Source: a virus (lineage: Duplodnaviria; Caudoviricetes). From it: a stretch of 64,000 nt of DNA. The stretch covers positions 32,001 through 96,000 of IMG/VR virus record IMGVR_UViG_3300022723_000184, one strand, 5' to 3'. Every line of letters begins with the position of its first letter. Position 1 is the first letter of the stretch. Made by a program: the position numbers and the translations under genes. This document shows positions 1,809 through 20,800 of this stretch, piece after piece. A model generated the notes under the pieces. It made no database searches, had not been told where the DNA came from, and was given only the letters and a program-made list of their open reading frames with translations.

Positions 1809-4800
1809 GTGACGACCATCTCGAACAACCTGTTCGACCAGGACCCTGCCAACTCGATCCTCCCGGATCCGAGTTTTCCACAGCCCGTCCCCAAACCGGC
1901 TCCTCAGGAGGAAGAGCCGGAAATGCGGCGTTTTGGCGACCCGATTGCCACACGCCGCGCCATTTACGACAGGGTTTTCCAGGCGGCCCAGGAGATGGAG
2001 CCGGTCGTGGGCCAGACCCACACGCTGCGACTGTCCAACCTCAACTGGGCGGATCCCGAGGAATACTCCAAGCGGAAGCGGAAGGAAGCGATCCTCTCCG
2101 GCCAGACGCTTGGTCGCCGTCTTCGCGGGACCTGGGAGTTGGTCAACAACGAGACCGGTGAGGTCCAGGACCGCACGGACAAGACGGTCGCTCGCATCCC
2201 TTACGTGACGGGCAGCGGGACGTTCGTCCACCGGGGCAACGAGTACGCGATCAAGAACCAGCAGCGGCTGCGGGCCGGCGTGTTTACCCGGGTCAAGGAC
2301 AACGGGGAGGTCGAGGCCCACGCCAACATCCTCCGCGGCGGCCCGAGCCACCGGTACTTCCTGGACCCGGCCAAGGGTGTGTTCTACATGCGCCTCGGCC
2401 AGGCCAAGATCCCAATGATGCCCCTGCTCAAGGCGATGGGTGCGACCGACGCCCAGCTGCGTGAGGCTTGGGGCCCGGAGATCCACGCCGCCAACTACGG
2501 GGCCAACGACGCCAGCGCCCTGGTCAAGCTCAAGGAGAAGATCCTCAAGGACCGCTCGGCGAAGCAGGAGGAACTGGTCTCGGCCTTCAACCAGATGGAG
2601 CTGGACCCGGAGGTCACGCAGCGGACGCTGGGCCAGCCGTACGAGAACATGGGCCTCGACACGCTGCTCGACACGTCCAAGAAGCTGCTGGCGGTCAGCC
2701 GGCAGGAGGCAGACGTCGACGACCGCGACCACCTGGCCTACCAGACGTTCCTGGGTCCCGAGGATCTGCTCGCCGAGCGGATCCGCAAGGACCGGGGCGG
2801 CGTCCGCCGCAAGCTGCTGTGGAAGCTGGCCCGAGAGGGCAACCTGAGCAAGTTGCCGGCCGCCGTGCTCCAGGACCAGGTGGACAGCGCCCTGCTCGAA
2901 TCGGGCCTGGGTCAGGCCCTCGAAGAGATCAACCCGGCCGAGGTCTTCGACAAGCAGACCCAGATCAGCCGGATGGGTGAGGGCGGCATCCCGTCGCTGC
3001 AGGCGGTGCCCGACGAGGCCCGCGGCGTACAGCCCAGCCACATGGGCTTCATGGACCCGCTGCGCACCCCCGAGTGTTACGACGAGCAGACGGAGGTCAT
3101 GACGAAGCAGGGATGGAAACCGTGGCCTTCCGTTACCGAGAGTGATGAGTTCGCTTGTCTGGTGGACGGTCGTCTGGAGTTTCATCTCGCAGACAAACTG
3201 GTGTCGTACCGGTACGTCGGGCAGATGTGTGGCGCGAAGACAGCCTTGGTCGACTACCTGGTCACGCCGGACCACCGCATGTACGTTCGCCGCGGTTACG
3301 ATACACCTCACTGGCGGATCGAGACGGCGAACGAGACGCATGAGGCTCATGTTCGGATTTTGAAATGCGGCGGCCACTCGCCTTACGTCGGGATGGCGTT
3401 CGATCCCGGTCTACCTGTCTTTGAGTCGCGGTCGAACAACAGCAAGGCGATCGACCTGGCGACCACGGACCCGTGCGACTGGGCGGAGTTTGTCGGGTGG
3501 TACCTGTCGGAAGGCAACTTGGCTGTTTCCGAGTCTAGACAGTCTTATAAGGTCATGATCACTCAGAGCCCGGAAGCGAACCCGGAGAACCATACCCGGA
3601 TCCGGGACTTGTTGGATCGTCTACCGTTCGACTGGTCTTTCTGTAACCACGAGAAAGCATTTGTCGTGAGCCGCCGCCACCTTTATGAGTGGGCCAAACC
3701 GCTAGGAAAGTGTGACGACAAATTCATTCCCGCTCGTTGCTTCGATTGGCCCGAGGAAGCTCGTCGATCGTTGTTGGAGGGTCTGTTACTGGGCGACGGC
3801 CGTAAGGCAGTTAAAGGCGGCAGAGTGGGCCGGCCCACACAGTACTGTTCGACTAGCCGCAGGCTGGCTTATGACGTTCAGAGGCTGTTGTTCACCCTTG
3901 GTGTCTCGTCCCGGGTGGTATTCGAGCCGGACGAACGGGAGGATCACTATCTCGGATGCTGGGTCGTGCATATCCACGCGAGAACGCAGCGGCGAGTTGG
4001 TCGTGCTCATGCAGCTAAAGAAAGCGATTTCCACCTGGAGAGTTACGACGGTCATGTCTACTGCGCTTCTGTTCCTGGTGGGCTTTTGTACGTGCGTCGC
4101 AACGAGAGCTGCGGCATTTGGTGCGGCAACAGCTTCCGGGTCGGTGTCGACGTGCACCTGGCCCGCAATGCCCGCAAGGGGCGTGACGGCAAGCTCTACG
4201 CCCAGTTCCGTGACGCCCGGTCGGGCAAGGACGTGTGGCGCACGCCGCAGGACGTCGCCGACCTGGCCGTGGCGTTCCCCGGCTCCATGAAGTCGGAGGC
4301 CAGGCGGGTGCCGGCCATGAAGAACGGCCGGATCCGGTGGGTGCCCAAGGAGAAGGTTGACCTGGTGCTCAGCACCTTCGAGAACGCCTTCAGCCCGTTG
4401 GGCAACATGGTCCCGCTCAAGAGCATGGTGAAGGGCCAGCGGGTGGCGATGGCCAGCCGGATGAGCGTAACGGGTGACGCCTGGGTTGTAGTGCTGCGAA
4501 AATCTGGTGACGCCTATTACGGCCCGATACGAGATTACGTGTGGAGGAAAGGCGACAAGTCTCCGTCTATCGATAAGGTTACGCACCGGCTGGTGTGGAA
4601 ACCGGTGCGAGCTAAGCTAGTACACCGGAACACGAAACGTCTTATGCGGGTGACGGTTGATAGCGGTAGGAGCTTTGTTGCTACTGAGGATCACAGTTGC
4701 GTTACGCTAGGTAAATCTGGACGTCTTGAAAAGATTAAAACCGGTGATTTATCTAAAGGCCTACCCGTTCCTTATGCCGCGACGCTTGATTGCCCCGAGA

Positions 4801-7800
4801 CGTACCAGAAAACGTGGAATGTGCCGAACGGAAACAAGCACAACGCCCATCCGGGTGTCGCGTTTCCGTTAACACGGGATGTAGGCTGGTTTTTGGGGTT
4901 GTACGTTGCCGAGGGTTACGGGGTCGGCAAAGATGCTCGCGCTGTGGCGCTTGCTAACATCTCTCCCGAAGTGCAGACCAGGGTTTGCCGGTTTATGGCT
5001 GACATTGGTTTGTGCGTGAAGCCGTCTTCCGGCAGCGACGGGGTGAACGACCGGGTTGTTATCAACTGGCTGCAGTTATACAGAAAGTTGCGAGAGGATT
5101 TCGGGGACGGGGCTTATAACAAAAGGCTTCCCGCCTGGGTGCATTTTTCGCCGAAAGCGTTCCGGGAAGGTCTGTTGTCGGGATACATGGCTGGCGATGG
5201 GATCGTATCGAAACCAGTAGCCCGTTCAACAACAACCGGCGGCGGCAGCCGCAGCCTGGACCTGGTCAACGGGTTGACGCTTCTTTGTGCGTCACTCGGT
5301 ATTTCAACGTCTGTGTCCTCGCCCTGGGTTAATACCGGCCCGGGAGGATCCCGGGTGCAACAACACAAGTTCACGATACGTAAAGAGCACCAACATCTAC
5401 TCCCCGTGATCGGCCACCCGGAAAAAGACAAAAAAATGCAACGGTCGTCGTGGTCGGGCAAGCGGTCTTACGACTGGATACCGATTTTCGACGACCTTAG
5501 ACCTATGTTTAATCGGCGAACGCAGCGTCGCGACAACCGCCGCCGGCGGCTGGATAACCGTTATATGGGTCGCTTGGATCGCCGCGACGTAATCGACTTA
5601 TTTGGGGATGACGCGGAGTGGGCTACCAGGGGTTGGTCGTCGTCGTCTGTCTGGTGGGATCGGGTGAAGCGGGTGGACGAAGTCAGTTCGGACCATGAAT
5701 TCGTTTATGACCTTGACATGGAAGACAACGTGTTCCTGGCCAACGGCGTGTTTGTGCACAATACAACGCAGGCCCTGCCCGTGGCTAACCCCGAGGCGCC
5801 ACTCGTCCAGTCGGCGGTTCCCGGCAGCGGCGGGGCAATCAGCTTCGAGGACGAGTACGGATCGCACATGGGTGCGGTGCGTGCCGATCAGCCCGGTCGC
5901 GTGGTGGCGGTCACCGACGACGAGATCACCGTGCAGTACGCCGACAACAGCCGGGCGAACATCGAGCTGTACAACAACCATCCGTACAACCGTAAGAGCG
6001 TGACCGGTGACACCGAGATTCTGATCCGCAGAAGGGCGGAATCTGGGCGGTCGAGGCAAGGGCTTTACATCTGGCGAGGCCCGATTCGCGAGTATCAGTG
6101 GCGAGACGACGACTACGTCCTTTCGGTGTGTCCGAAAACGAAGCAGTCTGCGTGGAAGAAGGTCATCGCGAAAACGGCTCATCCCAACGACAAACGTCTG
6201 TTGCGGGTGAAGACAGCGTCCGGCCGTCATGTTGTGGTGACCGAAGACCACAGCCTGGTGACGATGGGTAGCGATGGAACACTCGTGCCTATCTATCCGG
6301 ACGATTGCCAGGTCGGCAAGACACGGTTGCCTGTGGCTAAGATCCCCGAAATGGTCTCGTCGAAGACGTATCCGGGCAAGTCTCGTAACGACGGTCGCGT
6401 GGTCGGCCTATACCTTGCGGAAGGGCACTGCCCGCCCAGTCAGCCAAACCTGGTGACGATTTCGGTTGAGCCGGACGATCGGGCAGAGACGGTACTGGCT
6501 TTGTTGAGAACCGTTTCGGAGGGCTACGAGCCGTTCCGAAACGGCGGTACCGTTTGTATGACGGCGCCGAAACTGGTCAAGAGGTTGGTGAAACAGTTCG
6601 GACACCGGTCACACAACAAGAAGATCCCGTCGCGATTCCTTCGGTACCCAGCCGAGTTCCGAGAAGGACTGGTCGAAGGGTACATGGGTGGCGACGGTTG
6701 CTTTTGGAAGGACGGAAACGGCGGGACTAATTTGGAGGCGACCAGTGTTTCGCGGGAGCTTCGGGACAACCTCGTCGACCTGCTGCTGTCGTTGGACGTG
6801 TTCACGACGCTGAAGACGTCGCCAAGGAAAAAGTACAAGGATGCGTGGCGGGACGGGTATCGCTTCCGCGTCTTGTCCGGGGAGCTACACAAGCTGCCCC
6901 GATGGTTCGTGTACGACGATCGAGAGGAACGGTTGAACGAATCCATCGATTCGCAGTACCGAGCTTCCGTGTACGAGATGGTTCCGGTCCCCGATAAAGA
7001 AGCCAGGACGCTCGTCTATGCCGGCTTCGACAAGACGCCGCTGCAAGGAAAAGTTGCCAAGCACAGGCTGGCCGGATCCAAAAGCGTGTTCGGCAAGTGG
7101 GGTGTCTCTGACGTCATGTGGGATGAGATCGTGGCGATCGAATCGGCGGACCACGAAGAGGAGGTCTACGACCTTTCCGTGCAAGACTCGGAGATGTTCG
7201 CTGTTTGTCACGGCCTGGTCGTACACAACACATACATCCATCAGACGCCGACGGTCCGGCCTGGCCAGTCCTTCAAGGCCGGAGACCTGCTTGCCCGGTC
7301 GAACTACACCAACGACCAGGGCGCGACGGCCCTGGGCGTCAACGCCCGCGTTGCTTACGTGCCGTGGGGCGGCAAGAACTTTGAAGACGCCATCGTGATC
7401 TCGGACTCCATGGCCAAGCGGTTGAGTTCCGAGCACATGTACCAGCACGACCTTGAGATCAGCGCCCGGACCCGCACTGGCAAGAACACCTACCTCTCGC
7501 TGTTCCCCGGCAAGTACGACAAGAAGACCCTGGAAAACATGGACGCTGACGGCGTCGTCAAACCAGGCACAGTCGTGCAACACGGGGATCCGCTAATCCT
7601 GGCTGCCGAAGAGCGGAGCCGGGCGCTGAACAAGGTTCACAAGAAGCGTCAGCCTGGCTTCCAAGACAACAGCATCACGTGGAAGCATCACGACGAAGGC
7701 GTGGTGACCGATGTGGTGAAGACCAAGAACGGCCCGGTCGTCTTGGTCAAGGGCCGGCAGGAGATGAAGGTCGGCGACAAGATGTGTTACGACCCGGAGA

Positions 7801-8831
7801 CTAGCCTACTCACGCGGCAAGGTTGGAAGCCTGTTGCGGAGGTTACGCTCGACGACGAGTTGGCGACGCTGAACCCGGAAACGGAAGAACTGGAGTACCA
7901 CAAACCAACTCACGTGCACTCGTTTGCTCACACGGGGGAGATGTACTACCTGAATACCAAGCACCTCAACATGCTGGTGACGCCGGAGCATCGCTTGTGG
8001 GTTGCTCGTCCGGGCCAGACCTACGGCGAGGTGACGGCTAAAGACTTCTACGAGTCGAAGGGCGAATGGCAGTTCAAGAAAGACTGCAAGTGGGTTGGCG
8101 AAGAACGCTTGTTGATGGAGTTCGAGCCGTACATCGCGAGGAACAGTCGAGAGCAAGTCCTGGAATCTGTACCCATGGACATTTGGCTCAGGTTCATCGG
8201 GTATTACCTGTCAGAGGGTCGAACTTGTCGTACTTCGAGCGGCGGGTATCAGGTGCAGATCAGCCAGTTCCGAACGTCTTCGGTTTGGGAGGACATTCAC
8301 GACACGCTGGTCGAGCTTGGTCTGCGTTTCTCGTACCGAGAAAACGAAAATAGGTTTGAGATCAACTCCAAGTGGTTGTACGGGGTGTTGCTGCCGTTGG
8401 GCAGCGATGCGTACTCGAAGCGAGTGCCGGAATACGTACAAGAACTGTGCTCTCGCCAGATCTCCGTCTTGTTCGATTCTTACATGGAAGGAGACGGACA
8501 TAAGGGGGCGTGCTGGGAGTTTGGAACGTCGAGCGAGCAGTTGGCTTTCGACCTTCAAGTGTTGTGTTTGAAGTTGGGCTGGTGTGTCAAGTTGAAGCCC
8601 GTCGACCGTGAAGACAACCTTCAAAAGAACCCTCACTGGCGGGGCCGAGTTAATCGTTCTCATCTGCGGCCTTGGTGGAAGAAAGGGCAGGCAAAGACCT
8701 ACGCGTCCAACGAAGAGAAGATGGTGCAGTACGACGGCGAGGTCTACTGCGTGACAGTTCCCAATCACATCGTTTATTGCAAGAGGGAGGACAAAACGTA
8801 CTGGTCGCTGAACAGCGGCCGGTACGGCTAG
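1809..8831 (+). CDS. rpoB: Phage multi-subunit RNA polymerase beta subunit, N-terminal ~800 extein aa plus 4 inteins; ends at an in-frame TAG inside the GRxGxKG motif
   Basis: Beta motifs after removing inteins: FVHRGNEYAIKNQQRLRAG, HMGFMDPLRTPE|S, AMASRM|TTQALP, NRK|TYIHQTP..GDLLA, GVNARVAYVPWGGKNFEDAIVIS, MKVGDKM|SGRYG. Confidence 0.92.
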   Translation: MTTISNNLFDQDPANSILPDPSFPQPVPKPAPQEEEPEMRRFGDPIATRRAIYDRVFQAAQEMEPVVGQTHTLRLSNLNWADPEEYSKRKRKEAILSGQTLGRRLRGTWELVNNETGEVQDRTDKTVARIPYVTGSGTFVHRGNEYAIKNQQRLRAGVFTRVKDNGEVEAHANILRGGPSHRYFLDPAKGVFYMRLGQAKIPMMPLLKAMGATDAQLREAWGPEIHAANYGANDASALVKLKEKILKDRSAKQEELVSAFNQMELDPEVTQRTLGQPYENMGLDTLLDTSKKLLAVSRQEADVDDRDHLAYQTFLGPEDLLAERIRKDRGGVRRKLLWKLAREGNLSKLPAAVLQDQVDSALLESGLGQALEEINPAEVFDKQTQISRMGEGGIPSLQAVPDEARGVQPSHMGFMDPLRTPECYDEQTEVMTKQGWKPWPSVTESDEFACLVDGRLEFHLADKLVSYRYVGQMCGAKTALVDYLVTPDHRMYVRRGYDTPHWRIETANETHEAHVRILKCGGHSPYVGMAFDPGLPVFESRSNNSKAIDLATTDPCDWAEFVGWYLSEGNLAVSESRQSYKVMITQSPEANPENHTRIRDLLDRLPFDWSFCNHEKAFVVSRRHLYEWAKPLGKCDDKFIPARCFDWPEEARRSLLEGLLLGDGRKAVKGGRVGRPTQYCSTSRRLAYDVQRLLFTLGVSSRVVFEPDEREDHYLGCWVVHIHARTQRRVGRAHAAKESDFHLESYDGHVYCASVPGGLLYVRRNESCGIWCGNSFRVGVDVHLARNARKGRDGKLYAQFRDARSGKDVWRTPQDVADLAVAFPGSMKSEARRVPAMKNGRIRWVPKEKVDLVLSTFENAFSPLGNMVPLKSMVKGQRVAMASRMSVTGDAWVVVLRKSGDAYYGPIRDYVWRKGDKSPSIDKVTHRLVWKPVRAKLVHRNTKRLMRVTVDSGRSFVATEDHSCVTLGKSGRLEKIKTGDLSKGLPVPYAATLDCPETYQKTWNVPNGNKHNAHPGVAFPLTRDVGWFLGLYVAEGYGVGKDARAVALANISPEVQTRVCRFMADIGLCVKPSSGSDGVNDRVVINWLQLYRKLREDFGDGAYNKRLPAWVHFSPKAFREGLLSGYMAGDGIVSKPVARSTTTGGGSRSLDLVNGLTLLCASLGISTSVSSPWVNTGPGGSRVQQHKFTIRKEHQHLLPVIGHPEKDKKMQRSSWSGKRSYDWIPIFDDLRPMFNRRTQRRDNRRRRLDNRYMGRLDRRDVIDLFGDDAEWATRGWSSSSVWWDRVKRVDEVSSDHEFVYDLDMEDNVFLANGVFVHNTTQALPVANPEAPLVQSAVPGSGGAISFEDEYGSHMGAVRADQPGRVVAVTDDEITVQYADNSRANIELYNNHPYNRKSVTGDTEILIRRRAESGRSRQGLYIWRGPIREYQWRDDDYVLSVCPKTKQSAWKKVIAKTAHPNDKRLLRVKTASGRHVVVTEDHSLVTMGSDGTLVPIYPDDCQVGKTRLPVAKIPEMVSSKTYPGKSRNDGRVVGLYLAEGHCPPSQPNLVTISVEPDDRAETVLALLRTVSEGYEPFRNGGTVCMTAPKLVKRLVKQFGHRSHNKKIPSRFLRYPAEFREGLVEGYMGGDGCFWKDGNGGTNLEATSVSRELRDNLVDLLLSLDVFTTLKTSPRKKYKDAWRDGYRFRVLSGELHKLPRWFVYDDREERLNESIDSQYRASVYEMVPVPDKEARTLVYAGFDKTPLQGKVAKHRLAGSKSVFGKWGVSDVMWDEIVAIESADHEEEVYDLSVQDSEMFAVCHGLVVHNTYIHQTPTVRPGQSFKAGDLLARSNYTNDQGATALGVNARVAYVPWGGKNFEDAIVISDSMAKRLSSEHMYQHDLEISARTRTGKNTYLSLFPGKYDKKTLENMDADGVVKPGTVVQHGDPLILAAEERSRALNKVHKKRQPGFQDNSITWKHHDEGVVTDVVKTKNGPVVLVKGRQEMKVGDKMCYDPETSLLTRQGWKPVAEVTLDDELATLNPETEELEYHKPTHVHSFAHTGEMYYLNTKHLNMLVTPEHRLWVARPGQTYGEVTAKDFYESKGEWQFKKDCKWVGEERLLMEFEPYIARNSREQVLESVPMDIWLRFIGYYLSEGRTCRTSSGGYQVQISQFRTSSVWEDIHDTLVELGLRFSYRENENRFEINSKWLYGVLLPLGSDAYSKRVPEYVQELCSRQISVLFDSYMEGDGHKGACWEFGTSSEQLAFDLQVLCLKLGWCVKLKPVDREDNLQKNPHWRGRVNRSHLRPWWKKGQAKTYASNEEKMVQYDGEVYCVTVPNHIVYCKREDKTYWSLNSGRYG
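3075..4130 (+). mobile_element. Intein 1 in beta (352 aa, LAGLIDADG)
   Basis: CYDEQTEV...WCGN followed by +1 Ser; motifs GWYLSEG and GLLLGDG; more AT-rich than flanks. Confidence 0.9.
4464..5762 (+). mobile_element. Intein 2 in beta (433 aa, Ser1, LAGLIDADG)
   Basis: SVTGDAWV...VYDLDMEDNVFLANGVFVHN followed by +1 Thr; motifs GLYVAEG and GYMAGDG. Confidence 0.9.
5997..7229 (+). mobile_element. Intein 3 in beta (411 aa, Ser1, LAGLIDADG)
   Basis: SVTGDTEI...VYDLSVQDSEMFAVCHGLVVHN followed by +1 Thr; motifs GLYLAEG and GYMGGDG. Confidence 0.9.
7785..8813 (+). mobile_element. Intein 4 in beta (343 aa, LAGLIDADG)
   Basis: CYDPETSL...VYCVTVPNHIVYCKREDKTYWSLN followed by +1 Ser, inside GDKM|SGRYG; motifs GYYLSEG and SYMEGDG. 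Confidence 0.9.
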
Positions 8832-8833
8832 GT

Positions 8834-11800
8834 GATAAAGGAGTTGTTGCCGCGATCATCCCCGACAACCAGATGCCCCACGACAAAGCGGGCAGCCCGT
8901 ACGAGGTGCTGCTCAACCCCCTTGGGGTCATCAGCCGCTGTTACGACGAGCAGACTGAGTTCTTGACGGATCGAGGCTGGGTGTTTGGTCGTGACGTTCA
9001 TCAAGACGACCAGTTCGTTTGCTACCACGTCTGGACCGAGAACCTGTACACAATGCCACAGTTGGAGAAGTTTCACGTTGCGGACTACACAGGCAAAATG
9101 CTGAAGTTTGAGAACAAGCTCATGGACTTCTGCGTCACGCCGAATCACCGCATGTGGGCTGCTTGTGGATACCCCGGCGCGCCATGGCAGGAAGTGACGG
9201 CCGAGCGAATTTTCGACCGAAACGGGTGGAAGGTGCCTGTGGCCGGAAACCCGGTACCCGGTGAAGATCGGGACTTCGTGTTGCCGCAGATCGAGCGCCA
9301 CGTGAAGGATACGCAGTCGTCTGTAGAAGAAATTGTGATTGAAGCCGGGGACTGGGCCGAGTTCCTTGGTTGGTACGTGGCCGAAGGTAACGCCGACGAG
9401 AAAGTCCACATCTCTCAGAGTATCGAGGCTAATCCGGAAAACTGTAGCCGGATCGAGGAGCTGTTGAATCGCCTTCCGTTCGCCTGGAACTACAACGCGA
9501 AGAACACGCAGTTCCACATCACATCGAAGCGTCTTTGTGAGCACCTGAAACCGTTGGGGCTGTGTGATGAGAAGCACGTCCCGGACTGGGTCTTCTCGCA
9601 GAGCCCAGAGACACGGCAGCGGTTCCTAGATAGCTATCTGGCCGGTGACGGCGACAAAGATCAGACGAACAGAGACCATGCGTATTGGGGCGCCGGTACA
9701 ACGTCAAAACAGTTGGCGCAGGACCTCCAGCGACTGCTTATCTACCAAGGCTATTCGGCGAATACGTCGAAGCAGCCTTCGGGTATGTGGCGGGTCGGTA
9801 TTCACGCTAAACGGCACCGAATCTTGGAGAAACAGAACTGGGCCGAAGTTGACTACGACGGTAAGATCTATTGCCCGACGGTGCCAACCGGGTACATCGT
9901 GACTCGCCGCAACGGAAAGGTTTTGATCGCGGGCAACACCAACCCGGCCCAGATGGTGGAGGCCGCGTTGGGCAAGCTCGCCAAGCACCGCGGCCAGCCG
10001 ATCAAGGTCGAGGACTTCGACGAGAACATCGAGGACATGACTGAGTGGGCCAGGGATCAGCTGCGTAAGGCGGGGCTCTCGGACACCGAGGACATTGTCG
10101 ACCCTAGCACCGACAAGAAGATCAAGGGGATCAACACCGGCAACCGCTTCTTCATGAAGCTGCACCACACGGCGGAATGTTTTGACGATCAAACCGAGGT
10201 ACTTACAAAGCGAGGGTGGGTCTCGTGGGTTGATGCGCGAGACGATGATGAGTTCGCGACGCTTGATGGCGGCGACCTTGTTTATGAGCAGGCCGAGCGG
10301 GTAGTTCGCAGCGAGTACTACGGGCAATTGTGTTGTTTTGAGGGCAGATACCTTGACTATGCCGTTACCCCGAATCACCGACTCTGGTTGAAATCTTATA
10401 ACTGGCAAAAGGAGTGGGGGTTTCGCGAGGCCGGTGAGGTTCATGGGCGGCGGTTCTCTGTGCAACAATTCGGTCCCTCGGCGGCAGGTAACAATCCCGC
10501 AACCACTAAGATCGGCGATGACGACGTGGATTGGGATGATTACGCGGAGCTTGTTGGGTGGTGGGTCACTGAGGGGTACGCCAAGGTTACGCGTCGCCGG
10601 GCCTGCGTGATGATCTATCAAAGTGAATCCGCGAACCCGGAAAAACTTGCTAGGATTGAGGAGCTTGTGGCTCGTTTGCCGTGGCCCTGGCATTATTACA
10701 AAGTAAAAGGCGAGATTTTCGGTGTTGGCATTAGTAGTAGGGCACTTGCTGAGCATTTGAAGCAGTACGGAACACATTCACACAATAAGCGCTTACCGCG
10801 GCATCTCCTTGAGGGAGGATTGACCGGGCGACAGCGACTATTCGCGTCGATGATGGATGGCGACGGCAATCGGCAGACCACGCCGACTGGAAACATGGAA
10901 AGATTCACGACGACCTCTAAGGGGTTGGCAGATGATTTTCAGGAGTTGTGTGTTCGATCCGGATTCGGTGCGGTTATCCGCCCGGTTAAGCCGAGGAAAG
11001 AGACGCATTATTTGCCTGCGTGGACTTGCGGCGTCGCGTTGTCGCGAACAACCGCCCAGATCGACGGTGACCGCAATCTGGGCGGGTTCTCCCTTCGCAT
11101 GTACAAAGGCGTTGTTTATTGCGCAACGATGCGAACGGGGATGCTATATGTTCGGCGTAACGGTAAGCCGATGTGGAGCGGTAACTCCAAAGGACAGGGA
11201 CGTGGATCCGGAGGTTATACGGCTGAGGATGCACCGGCGAAGGGCGGCGAGACGGGCAGCAAGAGAATTGCGCTGCTCGATGTTAACGCCCTCCTCTCCC
11301 ACGGCGCTACAGAGGTTCTTCGGGATGCTTCTGCGATTCGCGGGCAGAAAAACGAAGACTACTGGCTGCAGTTCATGCAGGGCTACACACCTAAGCAGCC
11401 GAAGGTCCCGCTCGTCTACGAGAAGTTCGTCAACGAGCTGAAGGGCGCCGGGATCAACGTGGTGCGTGACGGGACGCAGACCAACATCATGGCGCTGACC
11501 GATGACGACATCGATCAGCTGGCCGGCGACCGCACGATCAAGTCGGGCGAGACCGTCCACTTCGACAAGGACCTCAAGCCGATCCCGGGCGGCCTGTTCG
11601 ACCCGGCGGTGACCGGCGGTCACCACGGTCGGCGGTGGGCCGCGATCAAGCTGGCCGAGCCCATGCCCAACCCGGTGATGGAAGAGCCGATCCGTCGAGT
11701 GCTCGGGCTGACTGGCAAGAAGTTCCAGGACATTATCGCGGGCAAGGACACGCTGCCCCGTTACGGCACCGGGCTGCGGGCGATTTCCGAGGCACTCGAA

Positions 11801-12877
11801 AACATCAACCTCGACCGCGAGATCCTGAGGACGCAGGGCGAGATCAAGAACGGGACGAAGGCGGCACGCGACGCCGCCGTGCGAAGGCTCGGCTACCTGA
11901 AGAGCGCCAAGCGGCTCAACATCCACCCGCGACAGTGGATGCTCAAGAAGGCCCCGGTCCTGCCTCCGCAGTTCCGCCCGGTCAGCGTGATGACCGACAA
12001 AGAGATCCCGCTCGTCGCCGATCCCAACTTCCTCTACAAGGAGTTGATCGAGGCGAACAACAACCTCATCGACATGAAAGGTGCGGTCGGCGATGAAGTG
12101 GGTGACGAGCGGCTGGCGGTCTACAACGCGTTCAAGGCGGTGACAGGGCTCGGCGACCCGATCACGCAGGAGTCGAAAGAGAAGAACGTCCGCGGCATCC
12201 TCAAGAGCGTGTTCGGCTCCAGCCCGAAGTTCGGCACCGCGCAGCGGAAGCTCATCGGGACGACGGTCGATAACGTGGGGCGTGCGGTGATCACGCCGAA
12301 CCCCTCGCTCGACATGGACAGCGTCGGCCTGCCCGAGGACCGGGCGTTCGAGGTGTACAAGCGGTTCCTGGTCCGCCGGCTCAAGCGGAAGGGGATGCCT
12401 GTGGCCCAGGCCATGCGGCACGTCAACGAGAAGTCGAGCTTGGCCCGAGACGTCTTGATTGAGGAGATGGAGCAGCGGCCGGTGATCATCAACCGGGCGC
12501 CCGTCCTCCACCGGTTCGGGATCATGGCCTTCAAGCCTCGCCTGGTGAAGGGCAGCACCCTGCAGGTGAGCCCGCTGGTCGTGAAGGGGTTCAACGCTGA
12601 CTTCGACGGCGACGCCATGAACTACCACGTGCCGACGGACGAGGAGGCCCGCAAAGAGGCTCTCGACCGGATGCTCCCCAGCCGCCAGTTGCTGAGCCCG
12701 TCCGACTTTAAGTCGCCGGTCCACGCTCCGAGCCAGGAGTACGTCGGCGGTCTGTACCACGCCACCGCAAGCAAGAGCGAGCGGCCGGTTCGGACGTTCG
12801 CCAGCCAGAAGGACGCGATCGCCGCGTACAGGCGAGGCGAGATCAGCATCGACGACCAGGTGCAGATCATCGGGTAG
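8834..12877 (+). CDS. rpoB-rpoC: RNAP beta C-terminus fused in frame to beta' N-terminal half (catalytic NADFDGD), with 2 inteins; no credible start codon of its own
   Basis: DKGVV, LLNPLGVISR|TNPAQ, FMKLHHTAE|SKGQGR and YEKFVNELKGAGINVV are the end of beta. These run directly into PGGLFDPAVTGG, KLAEPMPNP, PVLPPQFRP, VGRAVITP, RPVIINRAPVLHRFGI and GFNADFDGDAM (12593-12613), which are beta'. Confidence 0.92.
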   Translation, partial: DKGVVAAIIPDNQMPHDKAGSPYEVLLNPLGVISRCYDEQTEFLTDRGWVFGRDVHQDDQFVCYHVWTENLYTMPQLEKFHVADYTGKMLKFENKLMDFCVTPNHRMWAACGYPGAPWQEVTAERIFDRNGWKVPVAGNPVPGEDRDFVLPQIERHVKDTQSSVEEIVIEAGDWAEFLGWYVAEGNADEKVHISQSIEANPENCSRIEELLNRLPFAWNYNAKNTQFHITSKRLCEHLKPLGLCDEKHVPDWVFSQSPETRQRFLDSYLAGDGDKDQTNRDHAYWGAGTTSKQLAQDLQRLLIYQGYSANTSKQPSGMWRVGIHAKRHRILEKQNWAEVDYDGKIYCPTVPTGYIVTRRNGKVLIAGNTNPAQMVEAALGKLAKHRGQPIKVEDFDENIEDMTEWARDQLRKAGLSDTEDIVDPSTDKKIKGINTGNRFFMKLHHTAECFDDQTEVLTKRGWVSWVDARDDDEFATLDGGDLVYEQAERVVRSEYYGQLCCFEGRYLDYAVTPNHRLWLKSYNWQKEWGFREAGEVHGRRFSVQQFGPSAAGNNPATTKIGDDDVDWDDYAELVGWWVTEGYAKVTRRRACVMIYQSESANPEKLARIEELVARLPWPWHYYKVKGEIFGVGISSRALAEHLKQYGTHSHNKRLPRHLLEGGLTGRQRLFASMMDGDGNRQTTPTGNMERFTTTSKGLADDFQELCVRSGFGAVIRPVKPRKETHYLPAWTCGVALSRTTAQIDGDRNLGGFSLRMYKGVVYCATMRTGMLYVRRNGKPMWSGNSKGQGRGSGGYTAEDAPAKGGETGSKRIALLDVNALLSHGATEVLRDASAIRGQKNEDYWLQFMQGYTPKQPKVPLVYEKFVNELKGAGINVVRDGTQTNIMALTDDDIDQLAGDRTIKSGETVHFDKDLKPIPGGLFDPAVTGGHHGRRWAAIKLAEPMPNPVMEEPIRRVLGLTGKKFQDIIAGKDTLPRYGTGLRAISEALENINLDREILRTQGEIKNGTKAARDAAVRRLGYLKSAKRLNIHPRQWMLKKAPVLPPQFRPVSVMTDKEIPLVADPNFLYKELIEANNNLIDMKGAVGDEVGDERLAVYNAFKAVTGLGDPITQESKEKNVRGILKSVFGSSPKFGTAQRKLIGTTVDNVGRAVITPNPSLDMDSVGLPEDRAFEVYKRFLVRRLKRKGMPVAQAMRHVNEKSSLARDVLIEEMEQRPVIINRAPVLHRFGIMAFKPRLVKGSTLQVSPLVVKGFNADFDGDAMNYHVPTDEEARKEALDRMLPSRQLLSPSDFKSPVHAPSQEYVGGLYHATASKSERPVRTFASQKDAIAAYRRGEISIDDQVQIIG
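8939..9937 (+). mobile_element. Intein 5 (333 aa, LAGLIDADG)
   Basis: CYDEQTEF...IYCPTVPTGYIVTRRNGKVLIAGN followed by +1 Thr; motifs GWYVAEG and SYLAGDG. Confidence 0.9.
10178..11185 (+). mobile_element. Intein 6 (336 aa, LAGLIDADG)
   Basis: CFDDQTEV...VYCATMRTGMLYVRRNGKPMWSGN followed by +1 Ser; motifs GWWVTEG and SMMDGDG. Confidence 0.9.
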
Positions 12878-12880
12878 TGC

Positions 12881-12909
12881 TTCACTCGCCTAAAGTTGTG
12901 AGGTACACT
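12881..12909 (+). promoter_or_regulatory. Possible sigma70-type promoter TTCACT-17-TACACT
   Basis: Intergenic, canonical spacing, upstream of the CACGGAAGG RBS of the 12937 gene. Confidence 0.4.
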
Positions 12910-12936
12910 GACAGGATCACCACGGAAGGGCCCAAC

Positions 12937-13605
12937 ATGAGCAACCACCAGGTCAACCCTCAGCTGCACACCATGGCCATGCAGGCCGTCGCCGGTTACA
13001 TCGGCAAGGTGGCTGCGGAGGAGAAGAAAGCGTTTATCCCGGGCAGCGATCCGGCGATGGGCGGTGGCGGCATGCCCCCTGGCGGGGACCCGATGGCGGC
13101 GGCCGGCGGCGGCATGCCGATGGACCCTGCGATGATGGGTGGCGGCATGCCCATGGACCCCGCGATGATGGGCGGCGCCATGCCCCCGGCTCCCCCTGCG
13201 GCACCTGCTCCGGCGCCCGCCGCGCCCGCCGCGGCCCCCGAGCAGGTCAAGCCCAAGATCGACGTCAACGTCGAGATCATGCAGATCAAGCACATGCTGG
13301 CCCGCCTCGCCGACGCGATGGGCGTCCAGCTCTCGGCCGCCGAGATGGCGACCACTCCCGAGAAGCTCACCGAGATGGCACAGGGAGGCGGCCCTGGTGG
13401 TGCGGTGGGCGGCGGTGATCCTTCGGCGATTCAGCCCCCGCAACCGATCGATCCCATGCAGGCGGCGACGCCCGCTGAGAAAGGCGCGTCGATCCACGAC
13501 CGCACCGGCTTCAACACGCCGGACACCGCGGGCCTCGGCGAGACCGCCAGCCGGGCCTCCGCGATCTTGGCCATCAGGGGGCGGTCGAACGGTAGCGCTG
13601 CGTGA
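12937..13605 (+). CDS. Met/Gly/Pro-rich low-complexity protein, 222 aa (probable head-internal)
   Basis: RBS then ATG at 12937; EKKA and EKGA motifs; repeats GGGMPMDPAMM. Confidence 0.75.
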   Translation: MSNHQVNPQLHTMAMQAVAGYIGKVAAEEKKAFIPGSDPAMGGGGMPPGGDPMAAAGGGMPMDPAMMGGGMPMDPAMMGGAMPPAPPAAPAPAPAAPAAAPEQVKPKIDVNVEIMQIKHMLARLADAMGVQLSAAEMATTPEKLTEMAQGGGPGGAVGGGDPSAIQPPQPIDPMQAATPAEKGASIHDRTGFNTPDTAGLGETASRASAILAIRGRSNGSAA

Positions 13606-13868
13606 TCGTCGAAATCATCAGCGACGGCAAACCGCTACGCATCCCGGCGAGTCAGTTGGTCGTCTTTGACGACAACGGCACGCCGATTTGCGTTGCGGGC
13701 GAGTACGGGCCGGACGGTGCGTACAAGGTCTCGCACGCGGCCGACGAAGACTTCAACCAAAGCCTGCGTGCCTTCGGGGTTGGAAGGCACCAGGTCGTCA
13801 CAGATTTCCTAGAGCCACCTCCCGTTCCCGGCGGGGCGAGGCCGCTTACAGGACCATCGAAAGGATGA
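13602..13868 (+). CDS. Hypothetical protein, 88 aa
   Basis: GTGA overlap with the upstream gene and ATGA overlap with the downstream gene. Confidence 0.7.
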   Translation: MIVEIISDGKPLRIPASQLVVFDDNGTPICVAGEYGPDGAYKVSHAADEDFNQSLRAFGVGRHQVVTDFLEPPPVPGGARPLTGPSKG

Positions 13869-14794
13869 GCGTCATGTCCGATCACCCCAAGAACACGAAC
13901 CACATCTACGGCAGCAACAACAAATCGGTCGTCGACAACCGGCATGGTGACCGAAAGGGCAGACCGGGTCAGCCATTGAAAGCGAACCCGAGTTACCTAA
14001 CGAACAAGGACAACCCGTCGGCCGACAAGTACTACCGCAACCCGACGGAGGGCGGCCAGGAGGTGGCCCCGAACTCCAACGTTTCGACCAGCTCTTACCT
14101 CCACCCGCAGAGCACGGCTCCCCTCTCGCTCACGAACGAAGCGGACATGGGCGGGGTCTTCGACCTGATCCTCGGCCGCCTGCGTTCGGGCCAGGCCAAG
14201 GTGATCGTCCAGGTGACCGACGCCAACCTGGAGCGGCGTCTCGACGCCCGCCTCGACATGGCCCAGGCCCGCCAGCAAATTGACAACCGACAGCGTGCCG
14301 CCGTCCAGATCGGGCGCCCCGCTGCCTTGTCCGCGGCTACCGTGGCCGCCCCGACGCCCACCCCGACCACCGAGCGTCAGGCCGACGACGACCTGGCGTC
14401 CGACATCGACCCGGAGGCCTACGTGAACGGCGAGCTGCCCGAAGACGCGATCGACACCAACGCCTCGGCCGTGGCCGTCATCGAGGGCCCGGAGGCAGGC
14501 ACCGACGAGGGCGAGGACCTGGGCGAGGAGCCCGGGCCCGAGGGCGAGCCCGGCGAACCGCAGGCCTCGGACGGGGACGGCGGGGACGATGACGACGATG
14601 ACGACGACGGCGATGACGGGGACGACGATGACGACGAGGAGGAGGATGACGACGATGGCGAAGAAGAAGCTCCGGAAGGCGAGGAAGACGAAGAGGACGA
14701 GTTCGGCGACGTGCTAGACGACGTCGAAGAAGAACTCGACGACGACCTGGCGGACCTCGACGAAGAGCCCGAGTCTCATCTTCCAAGCCGATGA
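13865..14794 (+). CDS. Protein with an extremely acidic C-terminal tail, 309 aa
   Basis: ATG at 13865 coupled to the upstream stop; the final ~100 aa are mostly D/E. Confidence 0.75.
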   Translation: MSVMSDHPKNTNHIYGSNNKSVVDNRHGDRKGRPGQPLKANPSYLTNKDNPSADKYYRNPTEGGQEVAPNSNVSTSSYLHPQSTAPLSLTNEADMGGVFDLILGRLRSGQAKVIVQVTDANLERRLDARLDMAQARQQIDNRQRAAVQIGRPAALSAATVAAPTPTPTTERQADDDLASDIDPEAYVNGELPEDAIDTNASAVAVIEGPEAGTDEGEDLGEEPGPEGEPGEPQASDGDGGDDDDDDDDGDDGDDDDDEEEDDDDGEEEAPEGEEDEEDEFGDVLDDVEEELDDDLADLDEEPESHLPSR

Positions 14795-14840: not shown

Positions 14841-14857
14841 TCGGGGCACGGAGGCCC

Positions 14858-17800
14858 ATGAAGGCGACGGTCGGTCAACTTCTGGTGAACGACGCACTCC
14901 CGGAGGACATGCGGGACTACCAAATGGTCCTCGACAAAAAGGGTGTGCGGAATCTCATGGCCGACCTGGCCCGTAAGCACCCGGAGGATTACCGGGAGGT
15001 CAGCCACAAGCTCTCACAGATCGGTTGGCGTTCGGCCCAGGAATCCGGCGGCTACAGCTTCGGCTTGGAGCACATGCTCAAAAGCAAGACCGGCCGAGAG
15101 ACCCGCCAACGCATCCAGAAAAAGATCAACGAGATCCTCGCCGACGACCGGCTCACCGACGAGCAGCGTGAGCAGCTGATCCTCAAGCACATCGGCAAGG
15201 AACGCGAGGCCATGCAGTCGGGGATCTTCGACGAGGCCCGCGCCGCGAAGAACCCGCTGGCCATGCAGGTGTTGGGCTCGGGCCGCGGCAACCCGATGAA
15301 CCTGTCGAGCCTGTTGGGCTCGGACCTGCTGTACACCGACCAGCGTGACCGGCTGATTCCGATCCCCGTGCTCCGCAGTTACAGCGAGGGCCTGAGCCCC
15401 GCCGAGTACTGGGCCGGGACCTACGGCGCCCGCAAGGGCGTGATGTGTTTGGCTAAAGGAACTCAGGTGCTGATGGCCGATTACACGGACAAGCCGATCG
15501 AGAAGGTGAAACCTGGTGACTGGGTGATGGGATCTGATCGTCAAGGGCGGATGACGCCTGTGAGGGTTATCCGTCGTTACTACAACGGTGTGCAGCCTTG
15601 CTACCGCTACCGATTTCGCAAAAATAGTTGCCGTTTGCCGTCCTCGCATCGAACACTCGTGGCGACCGAAAAGCATAAGGTCCTTGCCACCGTAAAAGCC
15701 GGACGACCCGGTTCAACCTATGCACACCGGTCAATCTACGTCCCGACACCATTACCGCTTGAAGCGGCGCGTCTGCTTAAAAATCCAGTAAAGAATGAAT
15801 ACGTGGCGACGCCGGCGGCCGGGGAGGCGGGCGAGCAGTCCCGAGTGCGAGAACCGTCGGCCTTGTTGTATGGGTTGATGCTCGGCGACGGGTGTATGGC
15901 AGAATCGACCCGTGGGCGGTATTTGTTGTCGTGCAATGACCCGCTCCTTTTGGACGACCTGCGTGAGTACATCTCATTGTTCGACGTGTTTTTGGACAAA
16001 GCAGGCGGTGATAATTACAACTATACGCTGGCGGGCGATGGGGGGGCTGCGGTTGCGGTCGATTTGAAGACGCGTCTCGGCGAGAAATTGGCCCACGATA
16101 AGGAGCTTCCAGAGGGTTGTTTCGCATGGGACGATGTTTCGGTTGGTCAGTTGCTCGGAGGATTGTTTTCCACCGACGGCTCGATTACTGGCCGAAACGG
16201 TAACGCAACAATTAAGTTGACACTTTCTTCCCGGCGTATGGTGGAACAAGTGCAACGACTGTTGGAACTCCGGTTGGGTATATGGTCCGGCGGGCTGATC
16301 TTCACAGCTAAAGAAAAGAAGAAGAACGCAACGCACGACCAATGGGGTTTTGCGGTGTCACACGCTGCGTCGGTTGCCAGGTTTTTCGCGCGGGTCCCCT
16401 TGTACGGCAAGAAGAGGGTTCAGGCGAAGCGTATCGCGGCTACCATGAAACCGGACCACTCAAACGGGTCACCGGGGTTTAAGATCTACGATCGAGAACC
16501 GGCTGGCGAAATTGCTACATATGATTTGGAGGTTGATCACCCAGACCACCTGTTTGTGCTTTCTAGCGGCCTGGTCGTGTCCAACAGCACGAAGTTCGCC
16601 ACCCAGGAGGCGGGCTTCCTCTCTAAGCAGCTCAACCAGATGGGCCACCGCCTGGTGGTCACAGATGAGGACGGGGACGGCGAGCCCGATTCGCTCCGCG
16701 GCCTGCCGGTGGATGTCGACGACCCGGACTCCGCGGGAAGCCTGCTGGCCCACGACGCCGGCGGCTACAAGCGGAATACGGTGATCACGCCCAAGATCCT
16801 GCACAACCTTCGCCGCCAAGGTCTCAAGCGGATACTGGTCCGCAGCCCCACGGTCGGTGGTAGCCCTGAGGGTGGTATCTACAGCCGTGACGCCGGCGTC
16901 CGCGAGAAGGGCGGGCTCCCGGGTCGCGGCGAGAACATCGGCCTGGCCGCTGCCCAGGCGTTGTGTTTGTCTGGAGGGACGAGAGTCCAGATGGCCAACG
17001 GAGAGGTCAAAGCGGTGGAGGACGTTAAGCCCGGAGATGTAGTTCTGGGATGCAGTGTCGACGGGGTGTTGCGGCCTGTTCCTGTGCTTGACGCTTGTTT
17101 CAGCGGCATTAAATCGTGTGTGAAGGCCCTGTTCAGGCGGGGCACGGGTAAGGCCGCCAAAGACAATCTGCTAGAGCTGGTCGCGACTCCAGAGCACAAA
17201 ATACTCTCCGAGATTGTTGTTCGTTCGGGTAGGGGTTCGGTAAAACGTGTTCCTTACTTCGATCCGGTTGCCGTTCGCCCGCTCGGAACCAAAATCCCAC
17301 ATGAAAAGCGATCAGGGGGCGATCGGTTCTGCGCTAAACTGGCGTCGTCCTTTGACGATACCGGGCTTGGTGTTCAACCTTTAGCTTTTCTTTTGGGTCT
17401 GGTAATCGGTGATGGTTGCTATAGCGGATCAGCGAACTGCGTAGGGTTCAGCTGTTATGATCCGGTGCTCGCCGCTGACGTCGGTGCGTATCTCAAGCCG
17501 TTGAACTTCGAGATCAAAAACAACACGGATAACGAGTACCGCGTTGTCGATACAACGCACCGCCAAGTGAAGCGACGCGAAGATGGTAGCTGGTATCGCA
17601 GCCGTCTTATTGAGCTGCTTCGTGTCGAGGGAATGTTCGGGCAGACGAGCAGTATTAAGACTTTGCCGAAGTCCGTGCACTCGTGGGATAACGCGTCTGT
17701 GGCTGCGCTGATCGCCGGTCTGCTCGTAACGGACGGGTACGTGATATCGACGGGCGGTTTGGGGTTCGGATCGAACTCTAAGTGCTTGCTGGATGGCGTT

Positions 17801-20800
17801 CGGCAGCTTCTAGGGTTGCGGTGGGGCGTCTGGGGTTCGTCGGTTATATCTTCCACGAAGAAGCGTGCTGATGGTGATGAGTACGCCCCTAACTGGCGGT
17901 TTACGGTTAATCGCAGAGACGATGTTAATCTTCTTCGTTCTATTCTTCCTGTCGCTGGCGTGAAACGTGGTCGGCTAGACTCGCTGTTATCGAAGTGGAA
18001 CTCGAAACGGCGTTCGGCAAGAGGCGCGCCTAGAGTCAAGGGTCGGTGTACTCGTATTTCATTGGAACGGGTCGGCGAGTTGCCGACATACGACCTGTAC
18101 ATCGCACACCCTGATCACCTTTTCGTGTTGGCCAACGGACTGGTTGTTTCCAACTCCGAGCCCCTGAGTCAGGCTCAGCTTTGCCTTGCAGCAGGGACTC
18201 TAGTGCGGATGGCCGACTGGACGGTGAAACGGATCGAGCAGGTCCGGGCTGACGAACAAATCATGGGAGCCGACAAATCCGGGCGGCTGTTTCCGGTGCG
18301 CGTTGTCCGGGTCTACGACAACGGAGAGCGGGAGTGTGTTCGGACGGTATTCCGGGAAGCCAAAACGAAGCAACACGTCGATCTGGTCAGCACCGGAGAC
18401 CACAAACTCTTGTCCAAGACAAGGCATTGGGCGATACCGTCCGAGCGAGTGGAACACGGCGTGTTTCCGGTCGCCCGGAAATGTGTTGGCTACTCGGCCA
18501 AGATGCCGTTCGCGGTCGTAAACGATCACGGCTGTGCAGAACCGTTTGCCGGCCTGTGCGGTCTGCTGCTGGGTGATGGAGGGTATACTGTCAGCGTTCA
18601 CGGGGTTCACTGGTCTTGTTTCGAGCCGGACCTGGTGGAAGAGATGCAGCCTTACCTGGCAGGACTGGGTTTGAAGGCTACGAAGCTCCAAGGGCACGAA
18701 GGGCACGAAGGCTATTACCGAATCAGCCAGGTCGAAGACGCGATTCGGCAAGACCCGGAGACCGGACGAGTGCTGCCCGGAGACCGTAATCCGGCACTGA
18801 TCTGGTTGAAGCAGCACCGGATGTACGGCAAGTACGCACACGAGAAAGAGATTCCCGAGGAGATTTGGAGTTGGGACCAAAACTCGGTTGCACGATTGCT
18901 GGGCTGCCTGTTTGCGACAGACGGTAGCGTTTATCCGCCGACGCAGCGACCCGATGAACTCTATATCAACTTCAGCTCAACTTCTTTGGAGCTTGCGAAG
19001 CAGGTCAAGGAACTAATTCAGGTCCGCTTTGCGATTCATAGCTCGTCGATCGGAAGCCACAAGGGAAAACGCAAGCGGAAGCTTTATTCGTTCACGATCA
19101 CCCGCAAAGAACAGGTCAGACGGTTCGCGTCTCGGATCGCGGTTCCGGCGCGTAAAGGACAGATGCTGGCCGACTATCTGCCAAAACTCCAGGAAGACGA
19201 GTCCACCGAGTATTTCCATCGCCAGCGGCAGGAACCCGTGGGCACGGTTGCGACATACGATCTCGAAGTCGACCATCCGGACCATCTTTTCGTGCTGGCC
19301 AACGGTCTGATTGTTTCTAACTCGGCCAAGCACTCGGGCGGCGTGGCCGGCAGCGAGAAGGCGGTCTCCGGGTTCGACTACATCAACCAGCTGATCCAGG
19401 TGCCCAAGAAGTTCAAGGGTGGTGCGGCCCATGCCCAGGTCGACGGCATCGTGAGCCGGATCGAAGAGGCTCCGGCCGGTGGCAAGTACGTCGTGATCAA
19501 TAACGAGAAGCACTACGTCGGTCCGGACTTCTCGTTGAAGGTTAAGCGAGGCGACGAGATTGAGGCGGGCGACGTCCTGAGCGAGGGCATCCCGAACCCG
19601 TCGGAGGTCGTGCGCCACAAGGGCGTTGGCGAAGGTCGGCGGTACTTCACCCAGGCCTTCCGCCAGGCGATGCATGAAGCTGGGATACACGCCAGCCGCC
19701 GCAACGTGGAACTGTTGGGTCGGGGCCTGATCGACCATGTGCGGATGACGGATGAGTACGATCAGTACGTCCCGGACGATGTGGTACCCTACAGTGCACT
19801 GGAGCACCGGTGGCAACCCCGGGAAGGGAGCCGCCGGGTCCCGTACAAGCAGGCGGTTGGCAAGTACCTGGAGCGTCCGGTCCTCCACTACACGATCGGC
19901 ACGAAGATCCGGAAATCGATGCTCAAGGACTTCGAGGACTTCGGGGTCGAGGAGCTGGAGACCCATGACGAGCCGCCGCCGTTCGAGCCCGAGATGATCC
20001 GGGGCATGTACTCGGTCCAACACGATCCCGACTGGATGACCAGGATGTACGGCTCAGGCCAGAAGAAGAGCTTGCTGAGTGCCGTGCACCGTGGCGGGAC
20101 CAGTGACGAGCTGGGCACCTCGTTCGTCCCGGGCCTGGCCCGTGGCGTCGACTTCGGCCGGCAGGGCCTGGTCACGCCGCCCGCCCCACCCCAGAAGATG
20201 GGCAGCGACATGCAGAAGGAAGCGGAGGGCATGTGGGGAACCGGGGCCATCCCGGGCTCACCCAACTTCAACCTGCAGCAGCAGGCCCGCCAGTCGTACA
20301 ACGTCGGCAACAGCATGCTCAGCAGTATGCGTGGCGGCGGTGGCGTGGGTCCGGCAACGGCCGGCGACGCCAACCGGTTCCGACAGTACCTCTCGTCTTT
20401 CGCCGCTGCCCCCGGCCCCACCGGGGCACCTGCCGGTCAGGCTGCTGCGTCCGTGGCCCGCCCGGCGGCTGCTACGGCCGGCAGTGCCGCGACCGGCAAC
20501 GGCCTGACCACCGCCGACTGGCACGCGTGGAGTGCTGGACCGATGGGGGCGGGCGCCGCGACCAAGGCCGGGACCCGTCCGCTGGCCGCTGCTGCCCTGC
20601 GGTACGCACCGGCCGTGGCCAAGGCCCCGGGCATCCGCAACCTGGTGGGCGCTATGGCCCGGCCCTCGGCCGCCGCCCAGGCGTTGAGCGGGGTGAAGCC
20701 GCAGATGCCGGGCACCGTCTCGAAGTGGCTGCGGCCCGGCTACCACCAGTACGCGACCAAGGTCCTGGGTCAGTCCCACAACCTGGCTCAGGGTGCCGGC

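Follow-up and report, generated by a model that had tools for sequence, protein, structure and literature searches.

Inteins in RNA polymerases are known from archaea, eukaryotes and giant viruses (PMC1635734). The archaeal rPol inteins (Mja A′, Mja A′′, Nph A′′) and those in the RPB2, RPA2 and RPC2 subunits of eukaryotes and nucleocytoplasmic large DNA viruses (NCLDV) are LAGLIDADG inteins that occupy cleft-facing positions, the best conserved ones in the two largest subunits, with one or two inteins per subunit. The highest number reported for a single protein was four, in archaeal MCM and others, and then five, in Anaeramoeba Prp8 (PMC10710043); for a viral genome it ranges from seven, in mycobacteriophage cluster C1 (10.1101/2025.01.02.630785), to eight, in CeV (PMC12550674). 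Three inteins together with 14 introns in zeta crAss-like phages were termed an "unprecedented density" (PMC7886860). A literature search found no published description of inteins in phage multisubunit RNA polymerases. Here we describe a 64,000 nucleotide (nt) stretch of DNA, called the window, that comprises bases 32001-96000 of the IMG/VR record IMGVR_UViG_3300022723_000184 (201,946 bp in total, estimated to be approximately 90% complete, 62.5% GC). The source is an uncultured jumbo phage of about 202 kb, and the region under study encodes its own two-chain multisubunit RNA polymerase, a beta-beta′N fusion and a beta′C chain, which together are interrupted by nine inteins.

Like the cellular and giant-virus examples, the inteins reported here are LAGLIDADG inteins located at the best conserved positions facing the cleft in the polymerase's two largest subunits, and the Gly-Asn C-terminus seen in several of them also occurs in Pno RPA2; the difference is that nine are present and that the host enzyme is a phage polymerase of bacterial type. 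With MCM and Prp8 the locus shares the presence of several non-allelic inteins in an essential, conserved information-processing protein, but here there are six per translated chain if the ribosomal hop discussed below occurs, seven in the beta-beta′N chain of a relative (P0016) and nine per enzyme. Homing elements also pile up in core genes of the cluster C1 phages, CeV and the crAss-like phages, whereas this genome contains at least 12 inteins, nine of them in a single enzyme. Nine is more than in any published protein or enzyme that we found and thus a record-level number, yet not a unique one. The load had been called extreme in an original prediction made from the sequence, and it indeed lies above the published maxima both per protein and per viral genome.

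Nine inteins in the core motifs of the polymerase

Three long frames on the plus strand carry RNA polymerase domains, which are split by Hint and LAGLIDADG domains. The inteins are numbered i1 to i9.

1809-8831, plus strand: first reading frame of beta-beta′N; GTG start, contains i1-i4, ends with SGRYG-TAG; the N-terminus aligns with relatives
8834-12877, plus strand: second reading frame of beta-beta′N, from DKGVV via NADFDGD to the end; contains i5 and i6
14858-21604, plus strand: beta′C gene, 2248 amino acids (aa); contains i7-i9 and a low-complexity tail of approximately 460 aa

The motifs of bacterial-type RNA polymerases are present: GDKxxGRxGxKG and NPLGVxSR in beta, and NADFDGD, the bridge helix and the trigger loop in beta′. 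When joined, the exteins align with RpoB and RpoC of E. coli and with the Thermus and Clostridium beta′ structures, with the beta′N extein matching bacterial beta′ structures at E 1e-57. The closest isolated phages, Vibrio phages D181, D148 and D69 and Salmonella phage Arash, are approximately 30% identical. Apart from a break at 8829-8833, the coding sequence of approximately 17.8 kb (10.1 kb of it intein) contains no stop codon or frameshift. A search with PF00623 found no second RNA polymerase in the genome.

Intein boundaries were set by motif anchoring, and insertion sites were determined by joining the exteins and aligning them to E. coli RpoB and RpoC. The nine inteins span positions 3075-19321 and are separated by extein stretches of 27-555 nt (all on the plus strand; a slash marks the insertion point or the C-terminal junction).

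3075-4130, plus strand: i1, 352 aa, family A, GN/S; RTPE/S = E. coli beta E565/G566, fork loop 2
4464-5762, plus strand: i2, 433 aa, family B, Ser1, HN/T; ASRM/T = beta M685/Q686, NMQRQ motif
5997-7229, plus strand: i3, 411 aa, family B, Ser1, HN/T; YNRK/T = beta N762/T763
7785-8813, plus strand: i4, 343 aa, family A, LN/S; GDKM/S = beta M1066/A1067, GDKM/AGRHGNKG, active-site Lys motif
8939-9937, plus strand: i5, 333 aa, family A, GN/T; VISR/T = beta R1106/M1107, NPLGVPSR/MN
10178-11185, plus strand: i6, 336 aa, family A, GN/S; HHTAE/S (KLxH motif) = beta D1240/D1241
15446-16585, plus strand: i7, 380 aa, family C, SN/S; ARKGVM/S = beta′ A784/D785, bridge helix
16964-18154, plus strand: i8, 397 aa, family C, SN/S; AAQAL/S = beta′ I923/G924, trigger loop
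18182-19321, plus strand: i9, 380 aa, family C, SN/S; QAQL/S = beta′ M932/R933, trigger loop

Six inteins account for 2208 aa of the 3687-aa beta-beta′N read-through product and three for 1157 aa of the 2248-aa beta′C. These boundaries, lengths and sums reproduce exactly those of the original prediction, which had furthermore stated that the inteins lie in core functional motifs, keep both LAGLIDADG motifs and spare the NADFDGD region. The mapping onto E. coli places all nine in core catalytic motifs, with i8 and i9 only nine residues apart in the trigger loop, and NADFDGD is uninterrupted in the beta-beta′N of the window. Two LAGLIDADG motifs, each ending in an acidic residue (Glu or Asp) followed by Gly, were found in every intein. 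All nine likewise have Cys or Ser at position 1 (Cys in seven), the block B motif TxxH and a terminal Asn followed by Ser or Thr at position +1. The presence, boundaries and motifs of the inteins are thus directly visible, and from the motifs we infer splicing and homing activity: all nine look splicing- and homing-competent.

The inteins belong to three families. Family A (i1, i4, i5 and i6) starts with CYDxxTE and ends with GN or LN, and its members are 30-38% identical to each other. Family B (i2 and i3) starts with SVTGD and ends with HN/T, and family C (i7, i8 and i9) starts with CLxxGT and ends with SN/S. The nine inserts gave matches to the Pfam families LAGLIDADG_3, Intein_splicing or Hom_end_hint; Intein_splicing or Hom_end_hint matched i2, i3, i7, i8 and i9. 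Family A passes the Pfam cut-off only with its nuclease, the splicing-domain match of i4 being below the threshold. A sequence search of the PDB returned no match for family A and only noise for i9; i3 matched PI-PkoII.

Family A was therefore compared at the level of alignment and fold. An alignment of 20 members (alignment A2; i1, i4, i5 and i6 together with 16 inteins from relatives) has C1, T64, H67 and N352 invariant, and the nuclease Gly/Glu and a block-F Cys are invariant as well. The structure model of i1 (predicted local distance difference test, pLDDT, 88.5; predicted template modelling score, pTM, 0.89) matches TliVMA, PhoVMA, PI-PkoII, PI-SceI and PI-PfuI with E between 1e-15 and 1e-9, and I-DmoI matches the middle domain of the model. 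Since these are endonuclease-bearing inteins and a homing endonuclease, family A appears to consist of bona fide bifunctional inteins. With the solved structures (TliVMA and PhoVMA, 7qsu and 7qst; PI-PkoII, 2cw7; PI-SceI, 1vde; PI-PfuI, 1dq3) the inteins share the HINT fold, predicted here, and a monomeric double-LAGLIDADG domain, but identity is only 11-22%, and family A differs in lacking the penultimate His and in having the invariant block-F Cys.

This block-F Cys (VYC.TVP) coexists in family A with an invariant Cys1 and the lack of a penultimate His. Class 3 inteins are characterised by the triplet Trp B:12, Cys F:4 and Thr G:5 (WCT) in block numbering, and the position 1 nucleophile is usually absent. 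An assignment of family A to class 3 was considered and rejected: Cys1 is kept, the Trp is one position off (H-R-x-W), and G:5 is S, C or A.

The frame break after intein 4

The 3687-aa beta-beta′N is encoded in two frames. The first one stops at a TAG five codons 3′ of i4 (AGC GGC CGG TAC GGC TAG), and the conserved DKGVV resumes from position 8834 in another frame. It had been predicted that enzyme activity would need six consecutive splicing events on one chain. Six inteins are indeed present, but the frame is broken after i4, and ribosomes must cross a stop codon and a frameshift before a single chain could carry all six. The same break is found in relatives, whose loci are given as L numbers.

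8826-8833, plus strand: frame break; take-off codon GGC 8826-8828, stop codon TAG 8829-8831, landing codon GGT 8831-8833
8797-8826, plus strand: hairpin of 13 bp; the last i4 codons pair with the SGRYG codons, and the first base of the take-off codon is the last one of the 3′ arm
Gap in the window: TAGGT, 5 nt
Gap in L003, L004 and L069: TGAGGT, 6 nt
Gap in L142: TAATAGGT, 8 nt
Gap in L087: TAACTAGGC, 9 nt

All four gap variants, which come from i4-bearing lineages, begin with a stop codon and end with a GGY that matches the GGY take-off codon; a hop would thus restore the canonical SGRYG-DKG in all four lineages. Elsewhere in the fetched loci the motif occurs 101 times, each time as SGRYG-DKG without a gap, and L162, which also bears i4, is gapless too. 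The gap is preceded by a hairpin of 12-16 bp with compensatory changes in each of the four variants (window, L087, L004 and L142), and a weaker version is present in L162. Matched take-off and landing codons around a gap that starts with a stop codon, conserved in relatives, are the hallmarks of programmed bypass. From these features we infer that a short programmed ribosomal hop from GGC to GGT, tied to intein 4, is likely.

The bypass in phage T4 gene 60 uses a GGA take-off codon, a UAG stop codon, a 50-nt gap and a GGA landing codon, and is part of the mobA homing cassette. The candidate hop resembles it in the matched Gly take-off and landing codons, the stop codon directly after the take-off codon, the adjacent RNA hairpin and the link to a homing element. 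It differs in its gap of only 5-9 nt and in having the hairpin 5′ of the take-off codon, made of the last codons of the intein.

Other ways to obtain the downstream part of the protein were considered. Readthrough or recoding of the stop codon was rejected: the window requires a change of frame, whereas the relatives have an in-frame TGA or TAA. A separate downstream gene is unlikely, because none of the gap variants has an in-frame start codon before the essential Lys. A tRNA scan of the window found no suppressor tRNA. Sites 804 and 808, a short way downstream of the gap, hold inteins in relatives, and it is a matter of speculation that the gap might additionally spoil the target of a competing endonuclease near these sites.

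Distribution and origin of the inteins

To score intein occupancy, loci encoding the beta′N extein, 80 of them viral and 80 metagenomic, were fetched, and the spliced exteins were mapped onto them. In the homologues from the wider protein searches described below, inserts were mapped with MAFFT E-INS-i, which was validated on the window, where all six beta-beta′N inteins were recovered with exact borders; a profile hidden Markov model built from "intein-free" homologues under-counted (one of four inserts in the positive control) and was dropped in its favour. The occupancy tally comprises 82 non-redundant loci in which both genes are fully covered, the window itself counted. No intein is present in 65 of these loci, one in 12, two in three and four in one; the window has nine. 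The lineage of L003, L004 and L069 has three inteins, but de-duplication kept only the partial copy L003, and the three-intein L069 is absent from the tally.

In most homologues beta-beta′N aligns in one uninterrupted segment without the inserts, which suggests that the fusion is ancestral to the clade and the inteins are the exception. The closest relative, L087 (81% identity in the searched extein), carries i1 and i4 and no others. Each of the nine window sites holds an intein in other members of the family as well and thus represents a recurrent allele; across the family approximately 25 distinct insertion sites are used. Each intein of a relative scores best against the window intein of the same site, which indicates that the sites host separate allele lineages. 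These same-site lineages span relatives that are 58-81% identical in their exteins.

Wider searches covered 5.8 billion proteins. Among the top matches listed, beta-beta′N homologues bearing four to five inteins are no rarity, and P0016 carries seven in one unbroken 3572-aa open reading frame (ORF), one of them immediately after NADFDGD. The phage encoding P0016 (L167; beta-beta′N at L167:10001-20719, beta′C at L167:22526-25399) comes from a sample unrelated to that of the window and has two further inteins in beta′C, both mini-inteins, at the i8 and i9 trigger-loop sites. Its total is therefore also nine; three of the seven beta-beta′N inteins are mini-inteins, and five of the nine have no endonuclease. 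In many beta′C homologues the count is three or four, and every one of these inteins lies within either the bridge helix (sites 185-208) or the trigger loop (sites 322-335). This family of RNA polymerases is a hot spot for inteins in general, and the nine-intein enzyme is one visible tip of this undescribed hot spot. Whether such a number and such sites are commonplace, the point on which the original prediction had hinged, has a divided answer: the sites are recurrent and loads of three to four in beta′C, four to seven in beta-beta′N and nine in L167 do occur, but 65 of the 82 loci are free of inteins.

At third codon positions the GC content (GC3) of the inteins is 59-73% (pooled 66%), compared with 78-96% (pooled 88%) in every extein segment. 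The lower intein GC3 makes the inteins compositionally foreign and marks them as probable horizontally acquired selfish elements. The two inteins shared with L087, i1 and i4, are among the four with the highest GC3, and i2, i6, i7 and i8 have the lowest; this spread is consistent with successive acquisitions, and the differences may give a relative chronology of the invasions. Amino acid identity to L087 is 72-78% for the inteins and 72-82% for the exteins. The ratio of nonsynonymous to synonymous substitution rates (dN/dS) against L087 is low in both (0.06-0.2; 0.10 in the endonuclease half of i4), values that are rough since dS is saturated in most intein comparisons. Both inteins and exteins thus appear to be under purifying selection.

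We consider it probable that the nine inteins are selfish homing elements that accumulated in a hot-spot polymerase family, rather than parts of a purpose-built regulator, and that a hop crosses the gap after intein 4. On this view, full-length LAGLIDADG inteins from three families would have entered the polymerase in nine invasions. Each of them would be translated within the polymerase precursor and would excise itself by class-1 splicing before the fork loop, the beta active-site Lys motif, the bridge helix and the trigger loop form. Class-1 splicing proceeds by an acyl shift at Cys1 or Ser1, transesterification to the +1 Ser or Thr, cyclisation of the Asn and an acyl rearrangement. For the synthesis of beta-beta′N, ribosomes would cross the 5-nt, stop-containing gap after i4, most likely by the GGC-to-GGT hop. 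The endonuclease domains would cut the intein-less alleles of co-infecting relatives, into which the intein would then be copied (homing), and in this way inteins could pass from one member to another of a large environmental clade of jumbo phages during co-infection. Fixation would occur only at codons from which an intein cannot be lost imprecisely without lethal effect; homing into intein-less alleles would explain why the inserts sit in the most conserved and least deletable codons.

Several points weigh against this interpretation. The penultimate His is missing in seven of the nine inteins, HN being present only in i2 and i3. The remaining ends are GN, LN or SN, and the alleles of these inteins end likewise, i.e., this is a family trait; inteins lacking the penultimate His are known to be active, and GN ends occur in accepted inteins (PMC1635734). 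Should ribosomes hop poorly or not at all, the beta chain would be truncated and the gene might be defective. The retention of the endonuclease in all nine inteins together with the low dN/dS could reflect selection for a benefit to the host. Finally, a second assembly of the locus, L170, is possibly derived from the same sample, and a strain-chimeric assembly that pools inteins is conceivable.

The last point would mean that co-occurring strains with few inteins each were joined through their shared exteins into a union contig. The exteins between inteins are short (27-555 nt) and intein polymorphism is common among related phages, which would facilitate such a joining. However, L170 is an independent Logan assembly (SRR23862443) that is 99.996% identical over 27 kb, gapless and with a single mismatch, and includes the frame break; an unrelated sample yielded another nine-intein phage (L167), and the extein composition is uniform across the region. 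We therefore regard an assembly artefact as very unlikely. Still less probable is a decaying, non-functional polymerase in which the break after i4 and the intein load reflect relaxed selection. The beta-beta′N frame is genuinely broken at 8829-8833, but it is the only such lesion, all catalytic motifs are intact, extein dN/dS is low and the genome has no second RNA polymerase detectable with PF00623. Moreover, the break recurs at the same codon in L087, in L003, L004 and L069 and in L142 with different lengths, a hop would restore SGRYG-DKG, and the hairpin covaries. Given that the motifs are intact, that selection is purifying and that the layout of the break is conserved, a dead gene is unlikely.

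The original prediction had suggested that the intein load gates transcription. In this scenario the inteins would be conditional switches that respond to redox state, temperature or metal, or a maturation delay that times phage transcription. Interruption of the motifs occupied by the nine inteins must abolish activity, seven inteins have Cys1, to which the block-F Cys of family A could in principle add a redox-sensitive pair, the inteins are apparently under purifying selection and high loads recur in the family. Yet most relatives run the same polymerase without inteins and the closest one has two, the occupancy is patchy from site to site with no conserved set, and the homing endonucleases are retained and the codon usage is foreign, as in mobile parasites. 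Purifying selection is expected anyway for an in-frame insert in an essential gene, and the sequence analysis found no condition-sensing feature and no sign of domestication. Because the relatives are mostly intein-free, the endonucleases are kept and the occupancy is patchy, gating lacks specific support and is improbable. Slightly more doubtful is the combined proposal in which the nine inteins and the stop-hop together time maturation in several steps or sense a condition. If it were true, active RNA polymerase would be available only once a delay had passed or while the redox state or temperature was permissive, and the intein load would be a tunable regulator of the phage transcription programme.

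In this environmental jumbo-phage polymerase family the insertion sites include the bridge helix, both of the catalytic residues in the trigger loop and, in relatives, the position that follows NADFDGD. The family is therefore a natural system for asking how folding and splicing proceed in order when 60% of a chain is intein, whether two inteins separated by nine residues (i8 and i9) interfere with each other, how homing elements saturate an essential gene, and whether such a load carries any regulatory cost or use. It is also a source of many new orthogonal inteins, full-length and, in relatives, natural mini forms, and of a candidate short ribosomal hop that is physically coupled to an intein.

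Further inteins and neighbouring sequences

A divided arrangement was observed in beta-beta′N at approximately spliced position 943 in six loci (L006, L007, L008, L113, L136 and L153). The N-terminal Hint half terminates in a stop codon, and the C-terminal half (..VVSN/SKR) follows 250-780 aa later, sometimes in another frame. The arrangement resembles a split intein, or an intein carrying a free-standing insert, which divides the fused gene.

Outside the polymerase the genome contains at least three further inteins, two in a protease-like gene and one in a terminase-like ORF, bringing the total to at least 12.

28493-29689 and 29969-31180: two LAGLIDADG inteins within the 1297-aa protease-like ORF (28274-32167); HN/S and SN/C
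G000:C1:139906-142866, minus strand, outside the window: intein in a terminase-like ORF; CFVGDT ... LTHN/C

The inteins of the protease-like ORF have a GC3 of 57% and 65%, compared with 81% for its exteins, which have no Pfam match. The interior of the intein in the terminase-like ORF is an Arg-rich low-complexity stretch without a recognisable nuclease, and may represent a decayed or out-of-frame endonuclease. Between the beta′N and beta′C genes (12877-14794) lie two ORFs of 242 and 368 aa without a Pfam match; relatives also have small ORFs at this position.

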